Position numbers and translations under genes: made by a program. 56,778 nucleotides of DNA, from IMG/VR virus record IMGVR_UViG_3300027976_000010; one strand, given 5' to 3'. Numbering within the stretch: position 1 is the stretch's first letter; each line of letters opens with the position of its first letter. This document shows, piece by piece, positions 7,923-38,677 of the stretch. Under the pieces are notes generated by a model. It searched no databases. It saw only the letters and a program-made list of their open reading frames with translations, and had not been told where the DNA came from. This stretch comes from an uncultured virus (IMG/VR IMGVR_UViG_3300027976_000010). Taxonomy: Duplodnaviria; Heunggongvirae; Uroviricota; Caudoviricetes.

Positions 7923-8317
7923 TTCAGATCCTTCGCTGCCTTGTCGGCACCAAGGGCTAAATCGCCATTTTTTAGTGATTCAGATATGTCTATTGGGGAC
8001 CCGAGTGCCGTACGGGTCTTCGCTTCCAATCCGTTAACTTTCTCCATTAAGTCTCGCACAGTCCACGCCTTTACGGCGGGAGTCATTTTTTGGAAATTCT
8101 GGTCACCGATCATCCGCTTAAACAGATCGCCCGCCCACTGCATTTTTGGTGGACTTGGCGAAAAGTTGTCGACAATCCCGGCCATATTGCCGGTGGGGCT
8201 ATATGACACTGGTCCGCCCGGTTGGGCCATATCGGCCAATTCCGAAACGGGCGTTTTGGCAATCCGTTCCAGCAATTCAATAAATTGCTTCTCGGTCTTA
8301 TTTGTATTAATTTCCAC
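7919..8317 (-). CDS. Hypothetical protein, 132 aa, with a PTGNM variant of the GSM motif
   Basis: Overlaps both neighbours in the operon; SPTGNMAG at 8183-8197. Confidence 0.75.
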   Translation of the reverse strand: MEINTNKTEKQFIELLERIAKTPVSELADMAQPGGPVSYSPTGNMAGIVDNFSPSPPKMQWAGDLFKRMIGDQNFQKMTPAVKAWTVRDLMEKVNGLEAKTRTALGSPIDISESLKNGDLALGADKAAKDLK

Positions 8318-11300
8318 TATCTACCATCCCGTCTTCTATTAAATTCCGCGCCCAATCAATCATGCGTTTATATATTTTCTCAATACGCGCTCGCTCTATT
8401 TCGTCAAAATGGTCAAGCGTGCCAGTTGCCGCTAGCACTTGCGCGAGATGCATTTCAGCATAGGCCTCAGAGTTGGATCCTGGATAATTTTCCGGGTTTG
8501 CGATTTGGTCTGGATAAAATGCGGGCCCTGCATACGTAGACAGATACGGGATCAATTTTACGAGTGCCTCTATGTCGTCATCGCCAAGGTTTTTCCAACC
8601 GTTGTTGCCCTGCATGATCAGTCCGTCATTGACACGGCTGAGCATCCGGTGATAATTATCAGGATCTGCCATTTTATTTAACGCGGATATAATATATTTC
8701 CGCTCATTGAACTGACCGTCATCATCAAACCACGCTGATTTTCCGTAAACGTCATTACCAAAATTTTGCATAAATTCAGCAATCGCATTTGGATTAGTGG
8801 TCCGTATGTCGGTCATTTGTCGCCCTATGTTATTCACATCAAATGACTGTTTATTTATCCAATGATATACCGGCACTAGTGCTGTAACTTTTTCATATAG
8901 TTCACGCAGTCTTTCAGCGGCCACATCATATTGGCTTCTCATGACCCTGTCCATGAGGCGCATTTGGTCTAGCGCCGACTCCTGAGATGACACGGATAAA
9001 TTGAAAATTGCCAATAGGTCCATCGGCGTTTGCCCCATAATAGAAGCAAGTCCGCTATTCTCAAACATGGCACTGGTGTCAGCGCCGTTATTTCTGGCGT
9101 CCGTGGCCATTGAATCAAAGAGGGACAACACGGATCCAAACTCATCCAATTGCTGTCTCATTTGTTGGAGGATTCCCGTCATCTCCTTGAATGCGGAGTG
9201 TGACGCTAGCGCGTCATTGACATGCTCAAAAACAAATGTCGACGCTAGGGAATTATACAATGGTTTGGCGAGCGGTGAATCAAGACCGTCCTCAATCGCC
9301 GAAAGTTCAGTGATTGTTCTTCTGAACTCCCCTACGGTATTTAGCCCACGAGAACTGTGTTGATTTGCTGCCAGCGGGGAGCGTCTCCAGTTTCCGACCG
9401 AATCAAGAACGTGTCCGAACTCGTGGGTCGCAATTAAAAATGAAGCCGCCTGGGCTATTTCATCTAGGTCGGCATCCGCCCGTGCGGTTGCGGCGGAAAC
9501 GATCTGTCCCCTCATTGACGGATTTGATTCTGCGGAACGCATAGCATTGTCAAATTTATCCGCAGCATCTTTGATAAGTTGCGTTAGAACAACGGAGCCG
9601 ACATTGTCTATTAGTTGGCCTCCCTCGCTATTATTTTCTAGCAATCTGTACATTTCGTCTATGAAAACGCCGATGTTTCGGTCTCCGATTTGATCAAGCT
9701 GTATTTCAAACGAGTTACCATCTTTCATGTTCTGGAACGATGGGTATTTGCCGTGGCCAGATGTGGTGCTTGGTATTTGAACAATGACGGTTTTCACGCC
9801 ACGCCTCAGTCGCGGCTGAATTGTGGACTCCCATTTGGTTAAATCGCCCGCCCCGGACTCGGAGACGACAGGGGAATTTTCCATATCCGGATACGGTAAC
9901 CCCTCCCTCAGGCCCGGCAGCATCCTGTGAAATTCTGGTCGGAAATTTGACCCATCGGACATTGCTGCCGTTTCGTATGTCGGGCGAACCGATGTTGCGC
10001 CGACTGGTCCGTCAAATGACGGAGCGTCGGGCATGCTTGACGGAGAGAATATTAGACTAATATCCTGAAAGGCTTCAGGGTATTGATCTAGGTGATGCAT
10101 CAATGAATAATACGCTCCGAGCTCGGTTGGGGAAACCACGGTGTCGTTTCCGCTATAGCGACCTCCGAGGGCCGATTTCATGGCGCTCATTGCGGGTATT
10201 AACCAATACGCCGGGACGAGATCTAAATTAATATTTCGCTTGCCGAGACCGTCTTTGGCGGTGGCAAGTTTGTCGAGTACGTCGCCGATAGTTCGCGGCC
10301 TGCCGTTGAATTTTTGATCAATATTGTCTTCAATTCTAAGCATTAAACTTTTATATGCGTCAAGATCTACAAGCCAATCATTGTCGGTGCTTCTGGCAAG
10401 CGGATTGCCGGGGCCGAGTGCCATACTTCCGGTGGGCGCACTGTCATAATTCCGCCGAGAGGCGACTGATGCGAAACTTGGCGTAGTGTTCACGCGTCTT
10501 CCTCGGATTTTAGATGCACCACGCCTGCGCCTATTTTTTCGGTTCTCGTTCAACGCGCCAATATGCACCAATTCTGGCGCACGAGGGCCAACCGGACGTT
10601 CCCATCGCGTGCGATCCTGTCGGATGCCGTCCCCGTCGCCGTCTCGGGCGTTCGGGTCATAGACGATTCCCGAACGCATTCTATTCCCGGTTAGGCCACG
10701 ACCAAGAACCTTACTAGAGACAATATCTGTAACTTTTGTAAAATATAATACTTTCGCATTTGTGTAATTATATGGAGTTGATCCGCCGGCTGTTTGTATT
10801 TTGGTCTGCCTTGTAGTCGGGAGCGCTGATTTATATGTCAATCCGCCCGTTGACAATCCCTCATCCAAACTCGGCATCCTAGCTTTACCAAAAATTGCCT
10901 CTATGACATCAAGAAATTCAGCCATCGATATGCCGTCCGTATTTTCCGGCCCGTTTACGAAATCCCTAATTAATTTCATTCCATTTCCGCCCTGAAATAA
11001 CAGTGCGCCCAACTCCGCTACCATCTCGGTAGTATTACTTTGACCGTAGATGGAACCAAGAAAGTCCATCATAATACCAATATCGTCTTCGCTCACGAGG
11101 TGGCCCGAGGCATTTTGTGTCCCCGTGGATTTATTTGGAGAGTTTATATCCCCAGGCATTGCGTCGGCATAGATTTTTTTCCACCAATCGTGTTCGCCAA
11201 TAATGCCGATTCGCTCCATTGCGTCATTGACTCTCTCAAACATTTCGGCGATTTGTTTTTTGGTTGCACCGCTATCCCTCATTATTTGTTCTGCGCTTCT

Positions 11301-13648: not shown

Positions 13649-16600
13649 TTATTGTTCATTGTTTTTCTTGTCCCTCTGATACCGTTCGTCAAAGTAGCGT
13701 CGGCGGCGTTCCTTTATTGCCTCAGGGCTAATAAATCTGCGCGATTTTGGGGAAAACCGCTTTCTCCGAGATGTTAGAAATTTGGCCAGAGCTTCCAGAT
13801 CAAGTGTCCCATCAGATCTTAGCATCTTTCCTATTTCGTCCATCAATGCGGTCCGCTCATTTTCGTCAATCCGCCAATTCCTGGACTCCCTAATTCCCCC
13901 ATAGTTTTTAGGAATCAAGAAGCCGCGGCGGGTACTGCGCATCCCGCCGTCCTTATTGAGCCCAATCATTTGCGCGAGTGCGATATTGGTGTTTCTGACA
14001 AGATTTATCGCAGCTGGCGAATCCGCATCCCCAGCAACTTGGTCGGAGTTGCGGGCCATTGCCCCAATCATTTCATAGACGGTCTGCATCAAAATGCTTG
14101 GCGAACGGCCCAATGCATTGGCTGCGGTTGGCGTCAGGGTGTCATTGAGCATTATCAAAAAATCAAAATTTCCGTTACGCTCATCTTTATCCATCGGGCC
14201 GATAATTTGATTGAGATTTTCAGCCAATCGGCCGTTTTTAATCCCGATTTGGCTAAGCGTTATTGGGTTGGCCCCTGCATTATATTGATCTGGGAAGTCA
14301 GGCTGATCGTCACCATATAGGGTTACCCTGCCATCGGCCAAAATTGTCTCATAGTCATTTAGGTCGCTAGTGTCCCATTCCCTGGAGTGGGGCCTGGTGG
14401 GCCTTGTTGTATGCGGTAAGCGAACATCGACATAGTCGCCTGCCTGGTCGGAGTCTGTATATGACAACATTCTAGAACGTGCGCTGGGGGCATCGTCATC
14501 GTCGCCGAATCGATTTGAGTATTTAAAAGTCGGTTCGTCGGATTTGAAAAATTGTGCTCGGTTTTCCAGAAACATGCCCAGATCTAATTCGGAGTCTCCG
14601 GTGGCATTATCGACACCAAGCGGAGAATTCTCTTCGCCCGTATTTAATATGGCCCCGATCATGTCGTATAGGGAATCTCTTTCGGAATCAGAAATGCGCC
14701 AAGCACGGGGTTTCATTTCTCCATCTGCGTGTTTTGTATTTACAATCCATCCGTCTGGTGTCGCAGTGGCAAAATTACCCAGTTGCCCAAATTTAATTAC
14801 ATCTTTGTTCAATTTTTCCGGAGCGACATATTCCCTAAATGGCCAATCCCTGCCTTGCATTTCCGCAAGATTTATTTCGGCATTTATTTGTGCGTCAATC
14901 CCCCATCGTTGATTAATCGACTGGCCGGCGTTGCGCATGTCTTCCCAAACCACATCGTTATTATCATTTTCGTCAGGCCGCGCAAGCGCAGAGAGATATT
15001 TGAGTGCTTCGGCCATTACAAATTTAACCTTGTCATGGCGCCGTTGGGTTTCGTTAATCAGTTTGTTTTCATTCCACTGTTCGTCATCCTGGGGTAGCCA
15101 TTCATTCGGGCTAGTTCTAATATGCGGCCCAGCTTCTCTTAGCACCTCAAAATCTCGTGCGGTTATTTCCGGCAATGAGTCAGACAGCATCAGCCAATAG
15201 TCAAACCAATCGCGGGTCTCTAATTCGTCCATCGGCCATCGGGTCGACGGGATAGGCCTGCGGCCACTCAGCAGTGCGTCCCCGCGGGAAACATTATCTA
15301 ACCAAGTATCAACCGGATTGGCATGATTGTTGAAATTGCCGTTATTCCGCAGAGCTGCAATTTTGTCCCTATTAGCAAATCGCCCAGGCGGTAAAGTAAT
15401 TTTACTTAGTTCCATTCGTTTCGGAGTCGAGCCGCCTAGCGGGCCGATTATCGGCGATTGCTTGCTCGCTCGATTTTTGAAAAATGCCTTAACGCCTGAT
15501 CCGTCTAGCCATTGCGCTGGATCGGCTAATTTGTTTTTCTGTCTATCTTTAGTTATTGCGCGGCCGAGGTCCGCCAGCGCCTGTTCCCTTTCGTCCCTAA
15601 ACCAAAACCACAGCTTCCTGGCGTCATCATGGCGTGTAACTAACCAGCCGTTCGGGGTAGATTCAACTTTCTTAATAAACGGGTTTGCAATATCTCCAGC
15701 AAGAATAGGGAAATCGGCTCCGTCTATATTATTTTCCGCCATCATCTTTCTTCCTGCGCGTCGCAGATTTGCAACTGTATTCATTTCGGAATCGTCGCGT
15801 CCCATCTGGCCCATCAATAGTTTTGCCAAAGCCATCCGCGGGAAAGAATTCTGGAAAAATAAACCATCATTTATTTGCTCCCCATTGTTGGCGTTTTCCA
15901 GCACCCACGATTGCGTGTCATTTAGCATGATCGCAAAATCAAACCAATCGCGCGCTTCGGCGGCGCCGATTATGTTTTCCCCAGCATAGGGATTTATCAC
16001 TAGGTCGCTGGGTCGCCGACCGGTGGTCGGGTTGTCACCCATGGATGTGGTCCGTTGTAAAAAATACTCATGGAGTGGATTGGCAATTAATGAGTCGCTT
16101 TTCATGCGTTTGCGCAGTCCGGCCATACCGCCAACAAATCCGGATGCCAACTGCTCGGAAAAATCGCCTCTCCAATTGCTGTCGGTGTTTTTTTTATTGC
16201 CGGCCATCGACCCAGAAACCGTTCCGTCGCCATATTCATATTTCCGTTTTTTGAGCGGCGTGCTATCCCCTGGGGGCCCCGGGTTATCCCAGTACTCGCG
16301 TCTACCAAATCTGATTCCGCCCTCGCTTAACGAAGCCTGCAATAACAAGAGCGAGTTAAATTCCTTATCTAGACCTAGTATTTGAGCAGAGCGAGTCATT
16401 TTCCAAAATCGTGTTGGGTATGCGAGCCATGGGTCCTGTCCTGTATCCCAATCAATATCGGCGATGTAGTCATCTGTGTCAATATCCCAACCAAGGGCTA
16501 GTGCTTGGATATGAATTGCCTCAGCCACATTGTTCAGAAATCGTTTATTTCTTTTCAGCCTAGAAAGCGGTTTGCCGGCGATATTATATTTATTTCCATA

Positions 16601-17422
16601 CCCTCCACTGCCCCTGTCAATCGGAAATGCCCACCAGTCGTAGTGTGCATTGTGGATTGTGTCCCATCGTGATTTGGCGACTAAATCCCGGTGTCTAGCC
16701 AGCGTTAAGGCCTGTTGCGTGATTACATATCTATCCCCAGCGTATTTCGTTTTATTATGGTAATCGTCAAATTTCTTGGGACCCGATGAGGGCTTCGCTA
16801 CGCTCGTTCCCGGATACGTTCTGCCGAGTATGTCACTTTGGGGCTTATAAAATGGCAGTGCCGCTAGGTCTGATTCGTCTATGTCAAAATCATTCGGATC
16901 GATCGTGTCATCCAGGCCGGAATTTCTTAAATATTCCCGCCAGGCGCTAGCGTAATCAACGGAATCATCCCAAGGTTCATCCTCAAAAATCTCTGGCACC
17001 CCAGAACGCCGTACGATGAAATCGTCTTCTGGGAACAAACTATCCTGTTCGTAATCCAATAGCGATAGCGGGGTATCCTCGTCAATATCCGCAGAGTCAA
17101 ATTCTGGATCAGTAACATCGCTGTCGCCGATTAGATCGTTGACAAACTTGCGAGCCTTGCGGCGCTTAGAGCGCTTGCTACCAGCCATTGAGCCAGTCGG
17201 GGTCGGATCGATAACCCCGCGACCCCTATTAATTGTCGGGATTCCCTCTAGGACGAATAGATCATTATCTGCATTCCGCGCCGTGGCGGGGTTCATGTCC
17301 CTCTGGGGGCCGCCGATTGGCGAACCGATGCCCTTTTGCGAAGTCAGAAAATTTGATTTACGGTGTGTTCGTCGGTTTTGACGAACGTCGTTATGGGATT
17401 TTGTGTTTTCGGCGTCGGCCAT
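13649..17422 (-). CDS. Giant multidomain protein, 1257 aa; ARNADND module, OGFr_N/DUF1810-like domain, three internal repeats
   Basis: Long ORF. HYDWWAFPI...YPTRFWKMTRSAQILG; three copies of a (W/N)FD(F/Y)xxMLxD...TxxG(W/F)xx...Wx5ER...FxxxR unit; two GSM motifs. Confidence 0.88.
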   Translation of the reverse strand: MADAENTKSHNDVRQNRRTHRKSNFLTSQKGIGSPIGGPQRDMNPATARNADNDLFVLEGIPTINRGRGVIDPTPTGSMAGSKRSKRRKARKFVNDLIGDSDVTDPEFDSADIDEDTPLSLLDYEQDSLFPEDDFIVRRSGVPEIFEDEPWDDSVDYASAWREYLRNSGLDDTIDPNDFDIDESDLAALPFYKPQSDILGRTYPGTSVAKPSSGPKKFDDYHNKTKYAGDRYVITQQALTLARHRDLVAKSRWDTIHNAHYDWWAFPIDRGSGGYGNKYNIAGKPLSRLKRNKRFLNNVAEAIHIQALALGWDIDTDDYIADIDWDTGQDPWLAYPTRFWKMTRSAQILGLDKEFNSLLLLQASLSEGGIRFGRREYWDNPGPPGDSTPLKKRKYEYGDGTVSGSMAGNKKNTDSNWRGDFSEQLASGFVGGMAGLRKRMKSDSLIANPLHEYFLQRTTSMGDNPTTGRRPSDLVINPYAGENIIGAAEARDWFDFAIMLNDTQSWVLENANNGEQINDGLFFQNSFPRMALAKLLMGQMGRDDSEMNTVANLRRAGRKMMAENNIDGADFPILAGDIANPFIKKVESTPNGWLVTRHDDARKLWFWFRDEREQALADLGRAITKDRQKNKLADPAQWLDGSGVKAFFKNRASKQSPIIGPLGGSTPKRMELSKITLPPGRFANRDKIAALRNNGNFNNHANPVDTWLDNVSRGDALLSGRRPIPSTRWPMDELETRDWFDYWLMLSDSLPEITARDFEVLREAGPHIRTSPNEWLPQDDEQWNENKLINETQRRHDKVKFVMAEALKYLSALARPDENDNNDVVWEDMRNAGQSINQRWGIDAQINAEINLAEMQGRDWPFREYVAPEKLNKDVIKFGQLGNFATATPDGWIVNTKHADGEMKPRAWRISDSERDSLYDMIGAILNTGEENSPLGVDNATGDSELDLGMFLENRAQFFKSDEPTFKYSNRFGDDDDAPSARSRMLSYTDSDQAGDYVDVRLPHTTRPTRPHSREWDTSDLNDYETILADGRVTLYGDDQPDFPDQYNAGANPITLSQIGIKNGRLAENLNQIIGPMDKDERNGNFDFLIMLNDTLTPTAANALGRSPSILMQTVYEMIGAMARNSDQVAGDADSPAAINLVRNTNIALAQMIGLNKDGGMRSTRRGFLIPKNYGGIRESRNWRIDENERTALMDEIGKMLRSDGTLDLEALAKFLTSRRKRFSPKSRRFISPEAIKERRRRYFDERYQRDKKNNEQ
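17205..17298. repeat. Dispersed direct repeat, copy 1 (partner at 26267-26360)
   Basis: 17205-17250 is identical over 46 bp to 26267-26312 (ggatcgataaccccgcgacccctattaattgtcgggattccctcta). Ungapped similarity continues to 17298/26360 at a constant offset of 9062. Confidence 0.95.
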
Positions 17423-19395: not shown

Positions 19396-22300
19396 TCATG
19401 ATTTTTGCGCAACCATGCTGACGATAGACGGCAATATATACCGTGGGAATTTACCCGATACCAAAGAGTCTTTCTCCTCTCGGCCTATCCCGCTTCGGCT
19501 GTCATTCATTGAATCAAATTGGTCGGCCATAAGGTAGTTATTGGTCTTTTCCATTCTCCGTTTTAGGTTCATATGGAACCAATTACGCCTTCGTTGTAGT
19601 TTGAGAAGATATGCCAGAACATGCCCAATTTCGGTTACGATGGCGGAAGTCATATCCACCAGTGGTGTATCGGGGTAACTTTCCCTGATTTCCGGCGTGC
19701 TAAATGGCTCCCCGGGAATACCCATACGGGTTCTGTCTAGGCCCCCCGTGCGGCCCCTATCCAAACCTCCCGTATGGACTTTATCCAAATATTCAAGTCT
19801 TCCTAAAAGGGTGTCTAGGGACGAGTCCGCCACCACCCACCCCTTGAATAGCATTTCATTACTCGCATCCTCGGCACCCCCGAATGGCATTGAAGCTGGG
19901 CCACGATGATAATTCTGTATCGCTATTTCGGCATGGCGCTTCGTAACTTCTTCTCCGTGGCGGCGGAGAGGGTCATTTGAAATCCATTTACTTCCAGGCA
20001 ATCTCCCCATCATTGACCCAGATGGGCCGTCATCAAACGACAGCTGTTCTTGGGTCAAATCTTGAGTCTGCGCCGGCGGGCTTTGTGACGGCCCCTGATC
20101 GGGCGTGGCTTGTGGGTTTGGAGAATTTCTCGCACGCAAACTGCCCCGTTGCGTACTCGGCCCCCTATCCATGCGTCTGGCCGCACTTAGCGCATCCTCG
20201 CGTCTTCCGTATGCCTCTCCGGTCGGCGAATTATTATTATGCGTATCAATTATGGACCACGAACCATCTGGATTCGGCCTAATGTCGTAACGTTGCTCGA
20301 TATAGGCCATTGACCCGCTAGGACCGCCGGGGGGCTGATATGACGGGGCGTTATACAGATCTTCAAGGAAAGTTCCGAGCGTGTCTTTTAATTTAGAATC
20401 GGCCGGCTCGCCGGTTTCGGGCGATACGAAAAACCCGCCATACGGCCCACCGCGTGATTCTATGTAATCCCGGTCTCTCGGATTGCCGTTCTCATCAAAT
20501 GAAATTCCGTTATTTATTTCTACCGCGCTATCGAGCCAGCTGTCGTAGCCATCGCCGAGCTCTTGTTTTTTCAAATCAAGCATGTTTTCAAATTTCTTAC
20601 GCCTATCAATCAGGATCATTTTTTCTGCTCGCTCAAATGGGGACATCCCGGCCATCTGCTTGATTTCGGCCAAATCGCGACCCCGCGACGCATAACCAAC
20701 AACATTCTCTGGCGTTATATCTAGGTCGCCGGCGATAGAAAGGACATCATAGGTAAATCCATCAAAAACCTCCGGGAGGCCGTCGACTATGATTGTTTCA
20801 CTGGCCCTCATGTCTAGTAGGTGGTGAAGATCCATCAGGTCATCCATGGATGGGTTTTCCCAGTCCCTATTTTCCATGTTGGTGAATCTTGCGCCTATTT
20901 GCAAAGCGACAGATTCCCAATCATCTGGACCGTACACATTTTGAAGCCGTCTATCGATTAGGCGGCTACCGCTTAATGGTATTTTGGGTTGACCTCCACT
21001 TGGATGCAGGGACATGCTCCCGCTTGGGTCATCCCCGTTAATATTATTTCTAATTGCTACGGCTTCTGGACTGGCCAAGAATCTAGATTGAATTTCTGAC
21101 CCGATATTTTCAATGTCCCGCAAAAACCTTGATCTTGTTGCGTTATCCTTGGGATGAGGCCTCTCGGATCCAAAGAGTTGTTCAATTGATTCATTAAATA
21201 ACTCTCGCAGTTCGTCCGTTGTTTTGCTTGACAGGTCCTCGCCGCGTCGCAATGCCATGCTCCCGCTGGGGCTATTACTGCTGTATCTGAGATCGAGCTC
21301 GCCTAATACGTAGTCGATATTCCTAACTGTGTCAAAATCCGATGAGCTTAAATCAAGGGTCATTTCTAGGTCGTCAAATAATATATCCCCACGATCGATA
21401 TCATCCTGAATATCGCCGACCCTGTCAAGGGCGGAAATTTCACGTGCGCGTTCCCTGTCGACCACATTGAGTCGCCTGCGTATATTATGCTCACTCGTTC
21501 CATGGCGACGAGCAAGTTGCCTTATTGCGTCCGCATCGGAAGTTGACGACATTAAATCATTCAGCTCATTGTATATTTGCGCATTATAGGAATCATCCAT
21601 TGCGCGATCTGACGAATTAGTTGGCCTTGCGTAACGCCCCATTGAACCCGACGGATTTGCCATTTCAAAGACGCTTATATCCACGTTGCCGGTAAGCAAA
21701 TACTCCCCATTTGGGGCTCTCTCAATTTCTATGCCGAATTCATCGACGTAAGATTTGCCATCCGTGCGCATAACTCGATCGATAGCCGCGAATCTATCCA
21801 GGAGGTCATTGGTCTGCGCCGCGTCAATGGGGGCATCCGAATGGAGTCTGGATATAATCGTTTGCAATTCTTGGTCTTGTTCTTCGCGGGGCATTGCTGC
21901 GTATCTCGCATCATGCTTATTCGGTGTCCAGTATGACGGAGGAAAATAATTATTGACTCGTGTCGGAGTGAGGTCCATGGAGCCGCTTATTGAATTGTCG
22001 GTGGAATCGGTAGATTTTTTGTGCGATATCCGCGCTTGTTCCCTCTGTCTGTTATGGTCGGCGACCATAACCCCCAGCGGAATATTGACAAAATTCCGCC
22101 TACCCGGTGTTCGCTCTGCGCCGGTGAGTATTGATCCGATCGCCCTACCCGACGCCACCGGATCATTGGGTCTATCCATATTTATCTCAGAGACATCAAA
22201 TTTTTTCCGTATATTGTCGTCGCTATCAGTAGCGTGGAGAAACCACAGATCCGAGAACTCCGATAATGAGGCGCCCGCCTCGACATCAAGAAACGAAACG

Positions 22301-25300
22301 GTATACGGTTTGTTGCCGTACATAAACGAGACTCTATTATTAGAACGAGCCGCATCCAATAACTGACCAATTTTTTCCTTATTATTAACCGAGCCACTAA
22401 TGGCAATAGTTTTTCCAATCACCCCGCGTGTTCCGACTCTTATCATTTCCCGTTCGCGGGGCGCAGTATTTCCGGAGCGCTCCTTTTTGGGCGCTTCTCT
22501 CTCTTCACGAGGCGCTCTCTCTTCGCGAGGCGCCCTTTCCCTGGATCGTCTGTCGTTTTCATTATCCACATTGTCGCCCCAGGCGCCGGGGTCTGCCTCA
22601 TCTTCCCGTATTCGCCGTGCTTCTTCGCCTGAATCGGCTGGCTTATCGCGCGGGCGACGTTCGCCGCTTCCGCCACCGGTCTGCCGTTCTCCACTAAATC
22701 GCGTATTCGGCGGATCAGTTTTAGGCTTACTTGCGTTCTTATCTAAATTTTTATCGTAGCCGACTATCCGATCTACTCGGTAATTTTTTTCGTCTATGCC
22801 GTCTCCGCCAATGACATAGTGGACTCCGGTATGCGGATTTTTCCCCATCCGCGCCGAACGCAGAACTCTCGTCGTCGTTGGTGTGCCGTCGTTTTTATTG
22901 TAGCCAAATTGCAACGGTTTTCCGGTTTTAATATGGGCGCTCACGGCATCAACAATGCTCTCGGTGGTATTATTTCTGCCTATCGTAATATGGGTATCGC
23001 TTTCATCCCATCCGTCCGGTCGCGTCATGTCCATCCCGTAAAGTCCAAGCTCCCGATATTCAGCTTCAACATCTTCGGCATCTATATCTTCACCGGACGC
23101 CCTGCGCAATCTTGCTTCCTCTACCCACGGCTTACTACTTATCATCACGGCTTCTTCGTTTGGAACCCGACCGCGCTGGAAGTTAACACGCTCTACCAGT
23201 TCATCGTATTCATCACCGACCTCATTTGCCGGCCAATGTAATCCTCCGCCTCTTTCCCAGCCCTGCTGATCTGCGCCGCGTGGATGATTCCATTTACGAA
23301 GAACGCCGTTTTCGTCCGCGACAACATACCGGTTTGACTGGCGACTGGTATCACCGATATTTACCGTTGCATAACGCGTTATTTCGCCGGTGTCCATATC
23401 TACATGACTACGCGTCATATCGGAAAGATCAACGGAATCCACTTTTGCCAGTTTCTCCGCCCATGTGTCGTCCTCGGGGGCTTCTGGCGACACGTCCGAT
23501 GGCCCTGGTAGGTTTTCCGGTCCGTCAACCCTGAGGATTGGGATATCTGTTGCGCCCTGCCGACTTGGCGCAACACCGCTGTCATCAAAACCTTTAAGTA
23601 GGCTTCGTAAATAGGCCCACTGTTTTTCTGATAATGTCCCACTCATGCTGTATCGGTTCGCGATGCTTGTGACAACGGTAAGTTTTTTGCCCTGATCCGA
23701 TTTTGGATCAATGCCCATGTCCACGGCTGGGTTAAAAACACCGAGCCTGTCGGCTTTGGCTATTAGGTCATCGGCGTCTGGGGCAATAATATCCGTCTGT
23801 GGATCTTTTGTGATGGTCTTTGAGGCACTGTCTTTACCTCCATAACGGAATTGCCATGTTGATTGCTTCCACCATTGATGAGTTAATCCGCGCCCGGCCG
23901 TAGCCAGCCTTTTTCCAGTACCGGTCTGGAGAAGTGCGTCCAATTTTTCCTTATCGGACATCGCCACTTCAATGACATTGGGGACGACGTTTTCAACCTT
24001 CCCGGCGTTGTGGAACTGAATACCGAATTCGCTTTCGCTGGAATTAAATAAAACAAGATTCCGGCCGCTATCCCGACCTGTAGTAAGAGACGGCGTAATC
24101 GAGAAATTAATTTCCTTTCCATTACCGTCGACATAATGACCGGAGATTATGCCGTCCTTAAATTTTATTGGTCCTGTTTTTGATGCGATTTCCAGAATAT
24201 CAGCTTCTGCCGACGAAACAAATGCGTGATGATCCTGGTGGCGTGTCCAGTAAGTGTTCTGACCGTCATCAAATTCTGGACCGTTTGGCATACGCTCGCC
24301 AATTAATTCATGAATTGGTTTTTGTCCAATTTCCGGATACGACGCGCGCCGAGCGCGAATAAACGGTTTATCCGGATTCGTTCTATCAATTTGTATGTCG
24401 TAGTTCTCGTATTCTCCGTCTTTATTAAGAGTTGCCACCGAGTCGCCGGCCCTGTGTTTTTTGGTGCCGAATTTCATTGATCCGCTTGGACTGCTGTTGA
24501 AATTATCATCCTCTAATATTCGTGCGAATTCATCAAAGGAAGATGTTGCGGATGCATAATTAAACTGTTTGTCAAATTCCGTTGGCCCGATTGTGCGGGT
24601 TGATTCCGTTCCGTCCGACAGTGCTTGAACAATATAAGGTCCATTTTCGTCGGCTCCGAATGTCGACCGGATCACCGTTGGCTGATCATCCGCCAACCCA
24701 GATAGTTTCCTAAGCTTAGAAATAGCCTTTTGTTCTCGTTGCCGTACTTCCTCCCGCGATAAACCGGTTTCGTCGGCTGTGTCGACCAGGGATGCGCCGT
24801 TGAGGCGTAATTTTAATATTCTTCTATCGGATTCCGTTACAGAATCCCGGTGTCTATTTACAAGGGAGCGCATCTCGGCGCGTCGCGGGCTCTCGGATGC
24901 TGAGAGATTTATTGCATGGCCACGAATTCGCGCAATAGTTTCATTCTTGGAAAGATCGTTATCTTTTGCAAGTTTATCAATCGAGTCATCGCCGTATTTG
25001 TCGTAAAGGCGTCTATTTAATTTTTCGTCTGGCCCGCTCCGCTCATTGTCATTATCTGATGACATCCGCAAGATTGACGCCATCGACCCAGTTGGGGCAT
25101 CGGTACCAAAATTCCCCGATACAACATCGGGTACCGCATCCGTTAAATCCTGATTGGCGTTATCGTCTTTTAAATCGCTGACGTCCTCCGCCATTGCCAG
25201 CGCGTCAATTGCTAATTGCATTCCGACTGGCAGATCTATATCGTCATTTAATTCTAAAAAATTTCGCAATTTTGATAAGGCTAGTTGTTCTGATCTACGA

Positions 25301-27672
25301 ACGGAATATCTGTCAGTCCCAAGTCTCTGTGCTGCTTCGTCGAGTGTCTCCCCATCAAGTCTGCGCTTCAACAAATCGATAGAATCGCTAGAAAGCGGGA
25401 TGGACGGATTGTCCAGCGCTCTGCGCGACAATCTATTTGGATGAGTTTCGCCGAGATTCCGCAGCGAGCTTATGTGGCGTACTTCCAACTGTCTAATTTC
25501 TTCTCTGGTTTTTCCAAATTCGTGTGATGCTTGATCGAGAGACATCCCACCGTGCTGGCGAGCTAGGTATATATTTCTCGCCAATTCCGCTTGGGCCTGC
25601 CTAGAGCCGCCAATGTTTCCGCGCGCGGAAACAGCGTCCGGCAGTTTTTCCCCAGTGAATGAGCTTGCATCGTTTCCTCTACTCCGCTCAATTGCGTACC
25701 GCTGCTGGATCAGCTGCTGTAGTCTTCGTCTGTCCCGGATCAATTCCGGAGCTGAACGGTTCGTATTTTCAAAGGTGTTAGTTAGCGAGGCGGTAGCTAA
25801 TCGTCGGTTAATGGCATCCATCTCGGTGTCTATGCTCTCAAGAGAAGAGCTCATGCTCCCGCTCGGATTAGCCGTGCTTGCCCGGCCGACAGGGACTAGT
25901 GGCCGTACTGGCACTGGTGGTGCATCTGGGACCCTTGGTCGCTCTGGAATCGGAGGCGTTACTGGTCTTGGTGGCGGCGTCGGCGCTGGTTCCGGTTTTG
26001 GCACGGGGCGCGGCGGGGTCTTCCATGGTTCGCGTTCTGGTGGAACGGTTATCGGTGGTGGACGCCCTGGTTCCTTTTGAGGTTCTTTTTCTGGAACTTT
26101 TTCTGGAACTTTTTCGGGTTCTTCGTCTGGCTTCCTACGCGGTATCGCTGGCGCAACTTCAGGAATTTCTTCGGGGACCTCGCGCGGCTGTGGCACCGAT
26201 GGCATCATTTCGGCCCCGCGACGATTTCGGTTCAAATTGGGGACATTTGCATCGCTCCCCGGCGTTGGATCGATAACCCCGCGACCCCTATTAATTGTCG
26301 GGATTCCCTCTAAGACAAATTCATCATTGTCGGCGTTGCGGGCCGTCATCGGGTTCATGTTTGTACGCCGTCTATTGAGACTTGGTCGTAGCCCCTTTGC
26401 CTCAATGCCGCTGAGTACGGTCGTGATTGCGGTTATGGCATCTGGTTGCAGGGTGTCGTAGTTTTGAACAACAATCCCCTCGGTCAAAATTTTTATTGAG
26501 AAGCCGTGATATTCGCTAACCGTTCTAACTGTGTCAAAAATATCCGCCGATTCCACCGGATCGGTTGGACTAATAATTACATGGGTGCCAGGGTTCGCTA
26601 ATTTGAACTCGGACAGGGTCATCGCCGATTTTGAATCCCCGCAAGAGCCGCCGTGGATAGCGCACTCATCACAGCAACTATCCTTTTTATCGGCCGAGAA
26701 TGTCAGCACATCCAGAATATTTTGGCCGATTGCCGGTAGCATCGCCAATGTGATGCCGGGCGCGATTGTTTCCCCATTTTCCCTGCTACCCAGCGAAGAA
26801 TGAATAGGAATATAAATTGTTTCTGGTCGCACCTGTTGCGCTGTTCCAAACATGAATTCATCACCGTCGTAATGGTATGTGGCCCGCATCGTTTCCGTAG
26901 ATTGTCCGGCTCCCATTTCAAAGATGGCAATATCGTGGTCGGCACTAACCAGGCGAACGGGGCCGCCAAAGTGCGCAGACAGCGCCCGCGTTAAATCCGC
27001 CGCTCTTCCAACCACGGTATTAATAGGGTTGGTAACCGCTTCGTAAATCGCAGTTACTTGGTTTTTCATCTCAGCACCATTGGGGCCGGCGAGTGCTGAA
27101 TTATTAGCAGGATCCGCGGCGGGCTCATCAGACTTGATGGATATCGTCCCTGTCAACTGATTCGCCCCATGGAGAACAGGGCTGACTTCGTACAGCTCTA
27201 CTTCTTTTAATAGGTTGGCCTGCTGGGTGCTATCAAATACCGCATCTAACGTTTTGTAGCCGATTGACCACTCTTGGTCAAACCCAAAAAACCCGACGTT
27301 AGCAAATGCCTCGCGTCCCTTTTCTGCTTTTAGATTAAATTGGACCTTTGCATAAAGTCCGCCAATGCCGGCCTTTTTCATTTTTGTCGGTAGCCGCGGA
27401 TCGTTTGGGCCGACCTCGTATATTTCAAGGACCTTCCCAATGGGCTCGTTCCAATTGTGGCCCCAAACAACCCGTGGCTTTCTTCTTTTTAGCGAGTTCG
27501 TAAAACAGCCCGGAAGGCATACATCCCCGACGGAATCCTTATTGCCAATGCCCGCCACGAAGCATTCAATGATCCCAAGCGCTTCATCTATATTGAATTG
27601 ACCGGTTAACGACTTGTACTCGTAATCGCGAATGGGGGAGAGCGTGTCAGTCATGGGGTCCTTAATAGACAA
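19396..27672 (-). CDS. HK97-family prohead protease fused to an approximately 2150-aa array of cargo domains (putative polyprotein), 2758 aa
   Basis: The N-terminal ~180 aa carry Peptidase_S78-type motifs (DSVGD, VWGHNWNEPIG, GLYAK, EWSIGY, LYEVSPVLHGAN), and the gene lies directly downstream of the portal. After that come the ARNADND module, a Pro-rich linker, nine [P/I][S/T]GSM motifs, three sigma-region-4-like HTHs and two WYL-like domains. Confidence 0.92.
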   Translation of the reverse strand: MSIKDPMTDTLSPIRDYEYKSLTGQFNIDEALGIIECFVAGIGNKDSVGDVCLPGCFTNSLKRRKPRVVWGHNWNEPIGKVLEIYEVGPNDPRLPTKMKKAGIGGLYAKVQFNLKAEKGREAFANVGFFGFDQEWSIGYKTLDAVFDSTQQANLLKEVELYEVSPVLHGANQLTGTISIKSDEPAADPANNSALAGPNGAEMKNQVTAIYEAVTNPINTVVGRAADLTRALSAHFGGPVRLVSADHDIAIFEMGAGQSTETMRATYHYDGDEFMFGTAQQVRPETIYIPIHSSLGSRENGETIAPGITLAMLPAIGQNILDVLTFSADKKDSCCDECAIHGGSCGDSKSAMTLSEFKLANPGTHVIISPTDPVESADIFDTVRTVSEYHGFSIKILTEGIVVQNYDTLQPDAITAITTVLSGIEAKGLRPSLNRRRTNMNPMTARNADNDEFVLEGIPTINRGRGVIDPTPGSDANVPNLNRNRRGAEMMPSVPQPREVPEEIPEVAPAIPRRKPDEEPEKVPEKVPEKEPQKEPGRPPPITVPPEREPWKTPPRPVPKPEPAPTPPPRPVTPPIPERPRVPDAPPVPVRPLVPVGRASTANPSGSMSSSLESIDTEMDAINRRLATASLTNTFENTNRSAPELIRDRRRLQQLIQQRYAIERSRGNDASSFTGEKLPDAVSARGNIGGSRQAQAELARNIYLARQHGGMSLDQASHEFGKTREEIRQLEVRHISSLRNLGETHPNRLSRRALDNPSIPLSSDSIDLLKRRLDGETLDEAAQRLGTDRYSVRRSEQLALSKLRNFLELNDDIDLPVGMQLAIDALAMAEDVSDLKDDNANQDLTDAVPDVVSGNFGTDAPTGSMASILRMSSDNDNERSGPDEKLNRRLYDKYGDDSIDKLAKDNDLSKNETIARIRGHAINLSASESPRRAEMRSLVNRHRDSVTESDRRILKLRLNGASLVDTADETGLSREEVRQREQKAISKLRKLSGLADDQPTVIRSTFGADENGPYIVQALSDGTESTRTIGPTEFDKQFNYASATSSFDEFARILEDDNFNSSPSGSMKFGTKKHRAGDSVATLNKDGEYENYDIQIDRTNPDKPFIRARRASYPEIGQKPIHELIGERMPNGPEFDDGQNTYWTRHQDHHAFVSSAEADILEIASKTGPIKFKDGIISGHYVDGNGKEINFSITPSLTTGRDSGRNLVLFNSSESEFGIQFHNAGKVENVVPNVIEVAMSDKEKLDALLQTGTGKRLATAGRGLTHQWWKQSTWQFRYGGKDSASKTITKDPQTDIIAPDADDLIAKADRLGVFNPAVDMGIDPKSDQGKKLTVVTSIANRYSMSGTLSEKQWAYLRSLLKGFDDSGVAPSRQGATDIPILRVDGPENLPGPSDVSPEAPEDDTWAEKLAKVDSVDLSDMTRSHVDMDTGEITRYATVNIGDTSRQSNRYVVADENGVLRKWNHPRGADQQGWERGGGLHWPANEVGDEYDELVERVNFQRGRVPNEEAVMISSKPWVEEARLRRASGEDIDAEDVEAEYRELGLYGMDMTRPDGWDESDTHITIGRNNTTESIVDAVSAHIKTGKPLQFGYNKNDGTPTTTRVLRSARMGKNPHTGVHYVIGGDGIDEKNYRVDRIVGYDKNLDKNASKPKTDPPNTRFSGERQTGGGSGERRPRDKPADSGEEARRIREDEADPGAWGDNVDNENDRRSRERAPREERAPREEREAPKKERSGNTAPREREMIRVGTRGVIGKTIAISGSVNNKEKIGQLLDAARSNNRVSFMYGNKPYTVSFLDVEAGASLSEFSDLWFLHATDSDDNIRKKFDVSEINMDRPNDPVASGRAIGSILTGAERTPGRRNFVNIPLGVMVADHNRQREQARISHKKSTDSTDNSISGSMDLTPTRVNNYFPPSYWTPNKHDARYAAMPREEQDQELQTIISRLHSDAPIDAAQTNDLLDRFAAIDRVMRTDGKSYVDEFGIEIERAPNGEYLLTGNVDISVFEMANPSGSMGRYARPTNSSDRAMDDSYNAQIYNELNDLMSSTSDADAIRQLARRHGTSEHNIRRRLNVVDRERAREISALDRVGDIQDDIDRGDILFDDLEMTLDLSSSDFDTVRNIDYVLGELDLRYSSNSPSGSMALRRGEDLSSKTTDELRELFNESIEQLFGSERPHPKDNATRSRFLRDIENIGSEIQSRFLASPEAVAIRNNINGDDPSGSMSLHPSGGQPKIPLSGSRLIDRRLQNVYGPDDWESVALQIGARFTNMENRDWENPSMDDLMDLHHLLDMRASETIIVDGLPEVFDGFTYDVLSIAGDLDITPENVVGYASRGRDLAEIKQMAGMSPFERAEKMILIDRRKKFENMLDLKKQELGDGYDSWLDSAVEINNGISFDENGNPRDRDYIESRGGPYGGFFVSPETGEPADSKLKDTLGTFLEDLYNAPSYQPPGGPSGSMAYIEQRYDIRPNPDGSWSIIDTHNNNSPTGEAYGRREDALSAARRMDRGPSTQRGSLRARNSPNPQATPDQGPSQSPPAQTQDLTQEQLSFDDGPSGSMMGRLPGSKWISNDPLRRHGEEVTKRHAEIAIQNYHRGPASMPFGGAEDASNEMLFKGWVVADSSLDTLLGRLEYLDKVHTGGLDRGRTGGLDRTRMGIPGEPFSTPEIRESYPDTPLVDMTSAIVTEIGHVLAYLLKLQRRRNWFHMNLKRRMEKTNNYLMADQFDSMNDSRSGIGREEKDSLVSGKFPRYILPSIVSMVAQKS
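26267..26360. repeat. Dispersed direct repeat, copy 2 (partner at 17205-17298)
   Basis: 46-bp exact core 26267-26312; encodes MNPxTARNADNDxFVLEGIPTINRGRGVIDP in both genes. Confidence 0.95.
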
Positions 27673-27737: not shown

Positions 27738-29957
27738 CTATCCAATGTCAAATCGCAAGCGGCATCTGCAATTAATTGTTAAATGTGGCGGTGCAAATGG
27801 ATCGCCCGGGAATCTGATTAGATCATCACCGACCCTAAATGGCTCAAGCATCCCAACCGATTTGCCACTGAGCGCTACGTGTTCTGGTCGCACCAATGGG
27901 TCTCTCTCCGAAATCCAAGTTTTATTTATTGCGCCGATGGACCTGCCAGTGTAATAGGTGCCAGCGTTAAATGCCGTTTGGGACTCATGTTCAGCTATTG
28001 TGCGACGGCGTTTTGTCAGCAGGTTTACAAAAATCGCCGCCACTGCGGCCTGCAGCATCCCCGCTCTGTCCTCGTCGTCGTCCAGCGATGTTGCGATAAG
28101 AACGGCTGCGGCTATTTCGGCCGCTGTTGTTGAGTTAACTTTTTCAAACCGCTCCATTTGGGAGTCAAGATGTTCCTTGGCGTCTTGCTCATCTATTTCG
28201 CCTTGCATGTTTGCCTCTTGGGAAACGATTACGGCCGCATCATTCATTATTCCCGAAAGAATCGGACGCATATCTTGATTCATTTGTTTATTCCAGACTG
28301 CAATATCAAAAATAGCCTCTGGATCTAAGGATTTTGCCTCAAGTCCCTTTTTGGATTTATTACCCGACGCTTTCTCTAGAATCACACGTTGCTGTCTTTC
28401 AAAATATCTTTCTAAGCTGCTGTCCAGAATTTCCGTCCATCGGTCGGATGACTCTTCCGCTTTTGTTGCCCACTCATCCATGGGCGTGTCTTTTGTTGTA
28501 ATGTCATCGTCTGATTTTCCCGATATTCCGCCCATTGACGCTGCCTGTTGGGCGGCGATGGCTTCGGCATTTAGTGTTGCCGTCATTCCCTCCGCCGGTT
28601 GTGGTACGACTTCCGGTCCGAATCCCGTTGCGGGCGGCAACATTGGTGGAACCCCGGGAGCTTGTGGCGCGCCCGGCGCACCCTGGAGGGGCGCGTCCAC
28701 CTGTTGCTGAACGGTCGGATCAAACTTTTTATTGGTATAGCCAATCGGCGTTAGGTTGGGATTCGCCAGCATCGCATCCATTAATTCTGAATCAATATTC
28801 TTCCTGCCGGCTCCCTCCCTGTATTCGTTGCCACTGATTAGCCCCTGTTGGAATTCGTTAAGCAGATATCTGTCTCGTTCTTGTTTGTAAAGAACAAGCA
28901 CCGGCACGTCGGTCACGTCAAAATCGACATAGTACTTTGGGTGTAGTTCGTCCAGGCCACGCGCAAGCAACTCTAGGTGTGGGAGCATTGTTTCATTCCA
29001 GAAAACCTTGTGCTCTTCTGCGGCGTTTGAGAATGTTCGCCCAGCGGCGTTTCCGATTACCGATTCAGGGACCCCGAATGCCGCCAGAATCTCCTCTTTT
29101 TGCAACTGGCGCATTTGTACATAGTTAGCATCGCGCGGGCTCTGTCCGGTATCGACAAAATCCACCCCTTCATCCGACGAGACGACCGTAACCGCCCCGG
29201 CTCTATTTATATTGCCCCTAAACCGGTTTCTTAGCTCATCTTTGTCGTCGTCATCAATTTCTCCACGCACGACCAAGAGGCCACCAGGTCGACCATCATT
29301 CAACAAAAAGTTCCTATTGTAGATTTTTGCTAAATTCTCTATTTCAATAGCTATTCCCGCGGCCTCCATTGGAGTTAACGATAGATAGGGATCGAGCGGG
29401 TGCGGCTTTCTTATCCAAACGACATCGTCTGGATTAAGGATTATCTTTGTGCCGTTACGCATGTCAACCTCAAAGCCGGAAACAAATGTTCTCGGATCGG
29501 GGATGGGCGCAGTATGTTGCGGTGGCAGTAATTGTAAGGCGATTAGTTCGCCATTACGACCGCGGACCTTTTCAATAAAAGCCCCACGAGAAGACATAAG
29601 CAATTGTGACGATAGACGATATCTAAAAACAAAGGAATTTTCCCCTACGTTCGCTTTTGTATTTAACAGACTTAAGATTGATTCGTCCTTATCGCGCAGA
29701 ATGCGCCCCTGAGGGCTATTGTCCGCTCTTAATATCGCCGGCAAGCGAGATTGATTTCCCGCAATTGCGTCTATGCATCTACTTACCCAGGTGACTTTCT
29801 GGAACCCCTCTTTATAGGCTCTTTCAATATCCCAAGAGTCGCGGTACGGCCTACCCACATTGGCTGGGTTATATGAAACCGGTGCGCCCAGCCCGACATG
29901 GGCATTTTTGGATTGCGATGAACGCAAACCCTTGTTCTGTGATGAATTCCACGCCAT
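27738..29957 (-). CDS. Phage portal protein (HK97-like) with a C-terminal MuF (head morphogenesis) domain
   Basis: Portal motifs: VSRCIDAIA, GAFIEKVR...LQLLPP, PLDPYLSLTPMEAA, FLLNDGRPGGLL, EILAAFGVP. The C-terminus KTWISERDPLVRPEH...FPGDP...INCRC is the MuF signature. Confidence 0.93.
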   Translation of the reverse strand: MAWNSSQNKGLRSSQSKNAHVGLGAPVSYNPANVGRPYRDSWDIERAYKEGFQKVTWVSRCIDAIAGNQSRLPAILRADNSPQGRILRDKDESILSLLNTKANVGENSFVFRYRLSSQLLMSSRGAFIEKVRGRNGELIALQLLPPQHTAPIPDPRTFVSGFEVDMRNGTKIILNPDDVVWIRKPHPLDPYLSLTPMEAAGIAIEIENLAKIYNRNFLLNDGRPGGLLVVRGEIDDDDKDELRNRFRGNINRAGAVTVVSSDEGVDFVDTGQSPRDANYVQMRQLQKEEILAAFGVPESVIGNAAGRTFSNAAEEHKVFWNETMLPHLELLARGLDELHPKYYVDFDVTDVPVLVLYKQERDRYLLNEFQQGLISGNEYREGAGRKNIDSELMDAMLANPNLTPIGYTNKKFDPTVQQQVDAPLQGAPGAPQAPGVPPMLPPATGFGPEVVPQPAEGMTATLNAEAIAAQQAASMGGISGKSDDDITTKDTPMDEWATKAEESSDRWTEILDSSLERYFERQQRVILEKASGNKSKKGLEAKSLDPEAIFDIAVWNKQMNQDMRPILSGIMNDAAVIVSQEANMQGEIDEQDAKEHLDSQMERFEKVNSTTAAEIAAAVLIATSLDDDEDRAGMLQAAVAAIFVNLLTKRRRTIAEHESQTAFNAGTYYTGRSIGAINKTWISERDPLVRPEHVALSGKSVGMLEPFRVGDDLIRFPGDPFAPPHLTINCRCRLRFDIG

Positions 29958-38665: not shown

Positions 38666-38677
38666 GATGATCGGATA

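Follow-up and report, generated by a model that had tools for sequence, protein, structure and literature searches.

In a 56,778-nt stretch of an uncultured virus (IMG/VR record IMGVR_UViG_3300027976_000010; Caudoviricetes), hereafter the window, a single minus-strand open reading frame (ORF) joins an HK97-type prohead protease to nine further pieces of sequence, each preceded by a copy of the pentapeptide [PI][ST]GSM. This arrangement raises the question of what the pentapeptide does and, if it is a cleavage site, which enzyme reads it and where the bond is cut. Our analysis of this 2758-aa protein (P0001, hereafter the giant) and its relatives indicates that the motif is likely a conserved processing signal that delimits modules. 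The window comes from one virus contig of 74,450 nt, and it is on this 74-kb fragment that genome-wide statements for this phage rest.

A pentapeptide recurs in the protease fusion and in four further ORFs

The N-terminal 606 aa of the giant comprise the protease, two small domains, a module shared with other proteins of the locus and a Pro-rich linker, after which the nine cargo pieces follow (Table 1). The real start is probably Met7, because the alignments of relatives begin at residue 7. The motif occurs nine times, at exactly the coordinates reported in an initial annotation of this DNA, and all nine GSM tripeptides of the protein lie inside the pentapeptide; 2000 shuffles of the same sequence contained a mean of 0.006 copies and at most one. 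Splitting the protein at the motif yields pieces of 606, 257, 202, 833, 112, 128, 81, 235, 99 and 205 aa, so that the nine cargo lengths given in the initial annotation were reproduced on recount.

A six-frame search of the 74,450-nt contig with the broader pattern [PVI][ST]G[SN]M returned 25 matches, all of them in frame within five ORFs on the same strand (nine in the giant, two each in a 1257-aa and a 1748-aa protein, one in a 132-aa ORF and 11 in a second putative polyprotein of 5437 aa), and none on the opposite strand or in other frames. For the 11,332 aa of these five ORFs, shuffled sequences gave a mean of 0.0575 matches and a maximum of two (n = 2000), and reversed sequences gave none. 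The nine 15-nt motif stretches of the giant are all distinct, and the 25 sites of the contig are encoded by 24 distinct 15-mers in which both Ser codon families are present, which argues, as had been proposed from the giant, that the signal is a peptide and not a DNA repeat. The signal had been described as a property of the protease fusion; it is present there but is not peculiar to it, since four further ORFs carry 16 sites. Judged from the sequences, the motif is a code common to five ORFs here and to at least three clades of relatives, with clade variants, and is not special to the protease fusion.

The motif is retained in position among distant relatives

A relative of the protease is encoded in 220 stretches of IMG/VR, and 80 loci were kept. 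The protease fusions of these relatives are mostly 666-1000 aa long, and giants of 2391-3984 aa occur in one clade. Ten giants (2242-3806 aa, 28-43% identity) were recovered in a protein search with aa 1880-2758, and each has 6-14 P.[GA].M compared with 0.4-1.0 expected; in all giants found the protease is fused in cis to the cargo. Aligning the window's giant with eight of these ten by MAFFT gave 72 cells (nine sites by eight relatives), of which 68 have [PIV].[GA].[MLIV], 51 of them as P.[GA].M, and four have nothing. Relatives that retain the sites in register are 28-45% identical to this phage. Enrichment and positional conservation in homologs, the two comparisons that had been proposed as checks of the motif, were thus both observed.

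The second polyprotein shows the same pattern. Numbering from the motif Met as position 0, its alignment to a 5347-aa homolog (36% identity) in G001, a complete genome of 173,962 bp with terminal repeats, retains Gly at -2 and Met, Ile or Val at 0 in all 11 sites and Pro at -4 in 10. Comparison of the 1748-aa protein with G001 aligned its PTGSM with GPLGKI and showed no conservation of its VSGSM. Three syntenic ORFs of G001 (9,407 aa) contain 24 P.G.M, compared with just two in all its other six-frame ORFs of at least 100 aa (62,133 aa).

Across the family three positions are conserved, [P/I/V]-x-G-x-[M], and the variants differ by clade: PSGSM here, GPVGxM in G001, GPxAxM in P0011/L086, ISGRM in G002 and VSGKM in L019, as well as [VI]TGAM. 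Over the 80 loci (174,258 aa) we counted 148 matches to [PIV][STVA]G.M, compared with 17 in the reversed sequences. G002 belongs to the short-fusion clade, and its giants between the protease and capsid genes (1721, 2480, 1280 and 3464 aa) carry ISGRM-type sites. GenBank phages searched with the giant gave only protease-domain matches, at 40% identity or less, and hence no cultured relative of the cargo. A search for related loci with the cargo sequence alone found none, and one with an alignment found eight.

Motif sites coincide with the borders of cargo modules

Piece-by-piece Pfam scans placed one Sigma70_r4 match, a region-4-like helix-turn-helix (HTH), in piece 2 and two additional Sigma70_r4 stretches in piece 1, and most pieces matched no recognised family. 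Every domain match is confined to one piece, and no Pfam match in the scans of the giant or its pieces crosses a motif. The initial annotation had placed sigma-4-like, WYL-like and HTH domains inside pieces; this holds for Sigma70_r4, but WYL is under the cut-off (18.1 versus 21.8 bits). In the 5437-aa protein Clp_N, NUDIX and Zeta_toxin each fall in their own piece, and its final pieces correspond to a complete Clp N-domain (a 173-aa piece), a NUDIX hydrolase and a zeta-toxin-like kinase.

When the ten giants are cut at the motif, their pieces correspond end to end with those of the window's giant (128/128, 81/82, 235/236 and 99/102 aa), and whole pieces have been gained or lost among them, including pieces of 88 aa and 100 aa, a pair of 42 aa and roughly 300 aa, and a terminal piece of 412 aa. 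An exhaustive profile search of 1.84 billion representatives yielded no more than 24 hits. They include free proteins of 46-77 aa with similarity to the core of piece 8. These proteins open with M(x)ERYDI, their first residue lying one to a few positions ahead of RYDI, where piece 8 itself begins after the motif Met. An ESM Atlas search with piece 3 gave no usable match, and in a fold search the cargo model matched nothing but generic helical bundles (Z at most 8.6), an uninformative result.

The surroundings of the motif resemble linkers. Identity to relatives is 0.20-0.24 at positions -15 to -6 and rises to 0.85 for Pro at -4, 0.94 for Gly at -2 and 0.62 for Met, and the flanks are hydrophilic beyond average (P 0.007 upstream, 0.012 downstream). 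In an AlphaFold2 (AF2) model of aa 1880-2758 (m46d58cb5c818; mean predicted local distance difference test score, pLDDT, 53.7), all six sites lie wholly in coil with pLDDT<50, a state shared by 20% of the 5-mers of this model (nominal p 7e-5 for six of six). A second model, of aa 1-640 (mean pLDDT 55.8), is disordered from aa 427 on, site 1 included. The sites are therefore not predicted to be buried in folded domains, a possibility that had been raised as a refutation, since seven of seven modeled sites are in low-pLDDT coil; we regard the models as consistent with linker placement and not as proof of it.

The N-terminal region carries an S78 protease and a shared module

The protease domain matches Peptidase_S78 (PF04586) at 41.1 bits against a cut-off of 21, and PHROG 80 (head maturation protease) with an E value of 3.9e-28. 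H72 (in WGHN) and S136 (in EWSIGY) do not vary among 49 distinct domains, that of Gordonia phage ChisanaKitsune among them; the analogy with HK97 gp4 makes these two the presumed catalytic pair. The domain occupies aa 27-167 of the aa 1-640 model and aligns with T4 gp21 (5jbl; Z 10.0, rmsd 2.9, 125 aa) and with the protease of varicella-zoster virus (VZV; Z 7.0); herpesvirus proteases and gp21 also take the top Foldseek ranks, weakly (Epstein-Barr virus, EBV, protease: probability 0.91, E 0.03). By family and by modeled fold, the giant's protease is a member of S78 with an assemblin-like fold.

The two small folded domains after the protease are kept in relatives with short and with long fusions, and the short-fusion clade is 63-65% identical to aa 3-290 of the giant (tblastn). 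The aa 217-286 domain has a cystatin/NTF2/VirB8-like alpha+beta fold in the model, with Z of 5-7, which is the generic range; a protease-inhibitor-like (cystatin) fold beside a protease is a curious but unproven resemblance.

The shared module of about 46 aa occurs three times here (aa ~430-475 of the 2758-aa, ~30-75 of the 1257-aa and ~115-165 of the 5437-aa protein), three times in G001 and twice in the G002 block, and every copy lies toward the N-terminus of a giant protein. In the 1257-aa protein the N-terminal module (17183-17362) passes directly into PTGSM, and the counterparts of this protein in G001 (PTPGGPVGQM) and G002 (PTPGGEISGRM) have the same junction. Because the motif directly follows it, the module looks like a removable targeting propeptide in a T4-type layout, and by this analogy it is a candidate capsid-targeting signal.

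The putative polyprotein genes lie in a head-assembly block

On the minus strand the order is portal-MuF, protease polyprotein, 607-aa protein, ORFs of 1257, 1748, 132, 217, 703, 1481 and 141 aa, the 5437-aa ORF and the start of a capsid gene. The contig ends in this last gene; its product is HK97-like and matches aa 1-214 of the ChisanaKitsune capsid protein at 32% identity (E 4e-16). Giant genes thus fill about 46 kb between the protease/portal and capsid genes here, and the protease-capsid gap in complete relatives is ~45 kb in G001, 35 kb in G002 (137,811 bp) and 20 kb in G003 (144,873 bp). Genes bearing the motif are found between protease and capsid protein in G000, G001 and G002. MuF (aa 649-734) forms the end of the portal fusion protein and carries no toxin, unlike the MuF of polymorphic toxins, which lies N-terminal to a variable toxin domain, and Pfam found no MuF match in the polyproteins. 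The plus strand encodes myovirus tail proteins (sheath, tube, chaperone and baseplate), terminase, recombination proteins (Erf-like, exonuclease and RuvC-like), and ParB-like and PAPS-reductase-like proteins. The locus is the head-assembly block of a large uncultured myovirus.

The scaffold-like 607-aa protein is conserved over aa 283-601 in 61 of the 80 loci, and its C-terminal tail (aa ~494-562) shares 54% identity with that of the 501-aa protease-scaffold protein of ChisanaKitsune. We had considered this ORF as the capsid protein on account of its widely conserved C-terminal half, and rejected it because it has no similarity to the ChisanaKitsune capsid protein and its tail is protease-scaffold-like. 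Two invariant Cys clusters (C82/C91/C100/C103 and C314/C328/C331/C335; 28 sequences) look like zinc ribbons, which would be unusual for a scaffold, and the second is followed by an invariant M341-P342 (KEGSM-P here; PEGKM-P in L041, L044 and L045). Neither the 607-aa ORF, the 703-aa ORF nor the protease domain gave a match in sequence searches of the Protein Data Bank (PDB).

A proposed cut after Met and a model for processing

The 25 sites of this contig have Pro (20), Val (4) or Ile (1) at -4, Ser (20) or Thr (5) at -3, Gly (25) at -2, Ser (24) or Asn (1) at -1 and Met (25) at 0, followed at +1 by Ala (10), Ser (3), Gly (3) and others. In 70 distinct sites of relatives, -3 is mostly Val, -1 is free (Ala 17, Ser 14, Lys 12, Arg 12 and others including Glu and Leu), +1 is Ser, Ala or Gly, and the Met position may be Leu, Ile or Val but never Glu. 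Fixed positions at -4, -2 and 0 and a variable residue before Met suggest an extended strand whose P5, P3 and P1 residues face the enzyme, with the cut after Met. The cut therefore probably falls after Met and not before it; the bond named in the initial annotation, GS↓M, is unlikely, as the residue that would then be P1 varies freely in relatives.

These features suggest the following model. Each giant would consist of modules that fold on their own and are strung together by hydrophilic, disordered linkers, every linker carrying a single copy of the signal; among the modules are sigma-70 region-4 HTHs, a Clp N-domain, a NUDIX hydrolase, a zeta-toxin-like kinase and many that match no known family. 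The precursors would be drawn into the assembling prohead, either by fusion to the protease-scaffold part or through the shared ~46-aa N-terminal module, and there the protease would bind each linker as an extended strand, with Pro, Ile or Val at P5, Gly at P3 and Met at P1, and cut after Met and before a small residue (Ala, Ser or Gly). About 30 separate proteins would be released and stay in the head with the DNA, and some would then be delivered into the host cell at infection.

We hold the parts of this model with different confidence. That the fused S78 protease reads the motif and cuts after Met inside the prohead is, on the present sequence comparisons, somewhat better than an even prospect, and we give the same standing to the giants being head-internal polyproteins cut by that protease, with cutting, packaging and injection as inferred steps. 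That the products are injected effectors is suggested more tentatively. The capsid-loaded polyprotein envisaged in the initial annotation is partly supported: the idea came through each computational check that had been proposed to refute it, with the motif conserved at module borders, but a cut at GS↓M is unlikely and the signal is not restricted to the fusion. Taken as a whole, these phages may represent a family of 140-175-kb aquatic myoviruses in which an S78 protease of undescribed specificity dices precursors of up to 5437 aa into about 30 packaged and injected proteins, with the cut sites serving as seams for module swapping.

Alternative readings of the motif

Several observations weigh against cleavage of the motif by the S78 protease or against the generality of the signal. 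The leader of the capsid protein is the classical substrate of HK97-type proteases, and [PIV]xGxM was found at the leader/mature boundary in none of the five capsid proteins aligned (the partial one of this genome and those of G001, G002, G003 and ChisanaKitsune), so that either a second specificity of the protease or a different enzyme would have to account for the motif. Between clades that differ in their motif variant the protease domains are still 69-85% identical, too alike to demonstrate co-variation of enzyme and site. Clades L005, L012, L025, L061 and L071 showed no motif enrichment in the roughly 10 kb examined, free homologs of the same length as piece 7 were not found, and the only site-like match of the scaffold-like protein is a doubtful KEGSM followed by an invariant Pro. 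Both AF2 models are of low confidence and built on shallow alignments (5 and 24 sequences), with low pLDDT a proxy for disorder. A recurrent NPSGPM of relatives lies inside DUF6321, and its G-P-M is partly kept in a free protein and may be a feature of the fold; as the free protein is found in podophages, we dropped NPSGPM as a candidate autocleavage site after the protease.

The motif-free capsid leader and the near-identity of protease domains that accompany different variants both speak for a motif that is a real processing site for some other protease, a host enzyme acting after injection or one hidden among the modules, with S78 confined to head maturation. Most modules have no recognised family and leave room for such an enzyme, and cutting after injection was proposed for polyvalent proteins in the accessible part of Iyer et al. 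2017 (PMC5512222). We nevertheless consider this unlikely: the scanned ORFs gave no match to a second peptidase family, in three genomes the motif is restricted to genes situated between those for protease and capsid protein, the alternating P5/P3/P1 positions with Val at P4 and a small P1' match assemblin-fold proteases, and the cis fusion is kept in all giants found. A docking or hinge peptide that is never cut, making contact with the capsid interior, scaffold, DNA or a chaperone while the giants stay full-length, would sit equally well in flexible linkers, and cleavage itself is an inference only; the N4 virion RNA polymerase, moreover, is packaged unprocessed according to the part of PMC5512222 available. 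Such a peptide, however, needs no exact seat at every module border, and it would leave unexplained both the exchange of modules at these borders and a free homolog that starts there. The three-position alternating signature beside a small residue is that of a typical protease site, and the N-terminal module directly before the motif resembles a removable propeptide, so that we regard an uncut motif as improbable. Internal translation starts at the motif Met, or a DNA repeat or recombination footprint, were rejected as highly improbable. All sites end in ATG and three of the nine sites of the giant read GGGAGCATG, but Leu, Ile or Val replaces Met in relatives (PSGA[VI] and PVGS[IL] in 16 of 72 cells; GPIGKI and GPVGKV in G001), the conserved residues are in frame and upstream of Met, no stop codon separates the pieces, and most sites lack a purine-rich stretch, which where present ends 2 nt before the ATG; a DNA repeat is contradicted by the 24 distinct 15-mers.

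Comparison with known systems

Maturation proteases of T4 and phiKZ-like phages are the closest parallel. As given in the accessible parts of the sources, T4 gp21 cleaves at I/L-x-E (PMC12991175), SPN3US gp245 recognizes A-x-E with Val at P4 and Ser at P1' (PMC10052503), and 13 of the 14 SPN3US sites, in nine substrates, are removals of N-terminal propeptides (PMC10052503). The likeness lies in an assemblin-fold protease, a short motif of alternating positions in several head proteins, a Val P4 and Ser P1' preference in SPN3US that resembles Val at -3 and Ser, Ala or Gly at +1 in our relatives, and, by analogy, an N-terminal targeting propeptide removed at the motif there and a module followed by the motif here. 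In contrast to gp21, the protease here is S78 (HK97 type), would read a fixed Met (Leu, Ile or Val) instead of Glu at P1 and is not a member of the gp21 family. Whereas T4 and SPN3US mainly remove N-terminal propeptides, the sites here lie between modules, up to 11 in proteins of 1257-5437 aa, the protease itself is the first module of one polyprotein, and the capsid leader lacks the motif.

For the polyvalent proteins of phages and conjugative elements, Iyer, Burroughs, Anand, de Souza and Aravind (2017; PMC5512222, accessible part) proposed packaging, entry into the host together with the DNA and processing into units. Like polyvalent proteins, the proteins here are very large, combine many unrelated effector-type domains including a zeta-toxin-like kinase and are encoded beside virion genes: three Sigma70_r4 stretches, Clp_N, NUDIX and Zeta_toxin occur in separate pieces, and the genes lie between the portal and capsid genes. 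The available text of that paper proposes processing by an embedded zincin-like MPTase, the principal hub domain of polyvalent proteins, and names neither a linker signal nor a prohead protease fusion (PMC5512222), whereas here there is a countable junction motif and a fused S78 protease. Pfam scans (E up to 5 for the giant and 0.1 for the others) found no metallopeptidase or MPTase-like match, with most pieces familyless and a divergent one possible. In MuF polymorphic toxins of temperate phages (Jamet et al. 2017, PMC5576092, accessible part), cargo packaged in the head is likewise carried on a head-assembly protein; here, however, MuF is fused to the portal without a toxin and the cargo is carried on the protease or another N-terminal module.

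The protease-scaffold protein of ChisanaKitsune, an example of such fusions in HK97-like phages, has an N-terminal S78 domain 37% identical to that of the giant, and the order portal-protease-capsid is common to both. The scaffold part is a separate gene here, the protease carries about 2150 aa of cargo, and about 46 kb of giant genes part the protease from the capsid protein. In ChisanaKitsune (L090, 7882-25507), a distant relative that is in culture, the portal-protease gap contains candidate effectors as separate genes, annotated as RNA ligase, VIP2-like ADP-ribosyltransferase toxin and a 970-aa HNH protein, and these may be the unfused counterpart of the cargo block.

In RNA virus polyproteins and in the herpesvirus assemblin-scaffold the protease, as here, lies inside a precursor that is its own proposed substrate, with short sites that recur, and herpesvirus proteases have an assemblin-like fold (VZV Z 7.0; EBV Foldseek E 0.03). 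The herpesvirus site consensus is (V/L/I)-x-A↓S. Unlike RNA viruses and herpesviruses, this is a tailed double-stranded DNA (dsDNA) phage whose products would be capsid cargo and not replication proteins. A literature search found no description of the motif or of an S78-fused polyprotein; most subscription journals and supplements were outside its coverage.

What a protease code would imply

What phage heads contain has long been a blind spot. If the motif is a protease code, a sequence rule would predict capsid-loaded proteins and their pieces without proteomics, and sequence alone could tell which proteins such phages package and inject. In tailed dsDNA phages, polyproteins could then take up at least a third of a 74-kb stretch, a mode of expression considered characteristic of RNA viruses, and the widespread HK97-type protease family would gain a new specificity (P1 Met, P3 Gly, P5 Pro/Ile/Val). 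Such a specificity would be relevant to the bacterial immune sensors that detect prohead proteases (PMC12991175, accessible part) and would make the site a possible tool. The pieces would also form a large reservoir of early-acting, mostly familyless modules whose boundaries are premarked.

Other features of the locus

Table 1. Coordinates of the protease fusion, its motif sites and neighboring features. Positions are those of the window unless stated otherwise.
Feature	Coordinates	Strand	Remarks
Putative protease-cargo polyprotein P0001, 2758 aa	19396..27672	-	ORF open 2758 codons
Peptidase_S78 prohead protease domain (HK97 type), aa 34-177	27142..27573	-	Pfam and PHROG
Two small folded domains after protease, aa 219-282 and 349-427	26392..27018	-	AF2 pLDDT 73-88
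Shared ~46-aa module (..MNPxTARNADNDxFVLEGIPTINRGRGVIDPTP)	26260..26397	-	giant aa ~430-475
Pro-rich linker, about aa 495-600	25873..26190	-	from translation; disordered in model
Site 1, PSGSM, aa 603-607	25852..25866	-	coil with pLDDT<50 in model; P.G.M in 5/8 relatives
Site 2, PTGSM, aa 860-864	25081..25095	-	PSGA[VI] in 8/8 relatives
Sigma-70 region-4-like HTH in piece 2, aa 944-989	24706..24843	-	Pfam Sigma70_r4, 49.1 bits, E 3.9e-13
Site 3, PSGSM, aa 1062-1066	24475..24489	-	P[VI]GxM in 8/8 relatives
Site 4, ISGSM, aa 1895-1899	21976..21990	-	P[VFH]G[SA][IL] in 8/8 relatives
Site 5, PSGSM, aa 2007-2011	21640..21654	-	PFGKM in 8/8 relatives
Site 6, PSGSM, aa 2135-2139	21256..21270	-	P[VI]GAM in 8/8 relatives
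Site 7, PSGSM, aa 2216-2220	21013..21027	-	P.G.M in 7/8 relatives
Site 8, PSGSM, aa 2451-2455	20308..20322	-	following piece has free-standing 46-77-aa homologs
Site 9, PSGSM, aa 2550-2554	20011..20025	-	P.G.M in 8/8 relatives
Portal-MuF fusion	27738..29957	-	Phage_portal 1.2e-49, Phage_Mu_F 5.8e-07, PHROG 2662; directly upstream of polyprotein gene
Acidic, Cys-rich scaffold-like protein, 607 aa	17437..19260	-	C-terminal aa ~494-562
1257-aa protein	13649..17422	-	PTGSM 17186-17200, VSGSM 16205-16219
1748-aa protein	8307..13553	-	VSGSM 12588-12602, PTGSM 10422-10436
132-aa ORF	7919..8317	-	PTGNM 8183-8197
Second putative polyprotein, 5437 aa, 11 sites	C1:57169-73482, outside window, just past its start (L081:390-16703)	- (+ in L081)	G001 homolog 5347 aa

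In relatives, DUF6321 (PF19846; for example L026:10547-10846) separates the protease from the next domain; the giant of the window lacks it. This 70-aa domain also occurs by itself, as a small protein, in podophages of Pelagibacter, Methylophilales, Microcystis and cyanobacteria, and a literature search with incomplete coverage of subscription journals found no mention of its name.

Further genes of the window have features of their own. The 217-aa protein (7269-7922, minus strand) is rich in Cys and His and 60-76% identical in 39 of the 80 loci, and in the L012-L018 clade its homolog lies within the 666-aa protease fusion ORF. In the large terminase subunit (30228-32558, plus strand) Terminase_6N and Terminase_6C are separated by LAGLIDADG_3 (aa 351-405), pointing to the insertion of an intein or a homing endonuclease. 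At 36717-39235 (plus strand) a PAPS-reductase-like gene (PHROG 2302, E 1e-72) is located between two ParB-like nuclease/partition genes and may be part of a DNA-modification cassette. Finally, a 1459-aa ORF with no family match (44865-49244, plus strand) follows the tail assembly chaperone and, by position, is presumably the tape measure.

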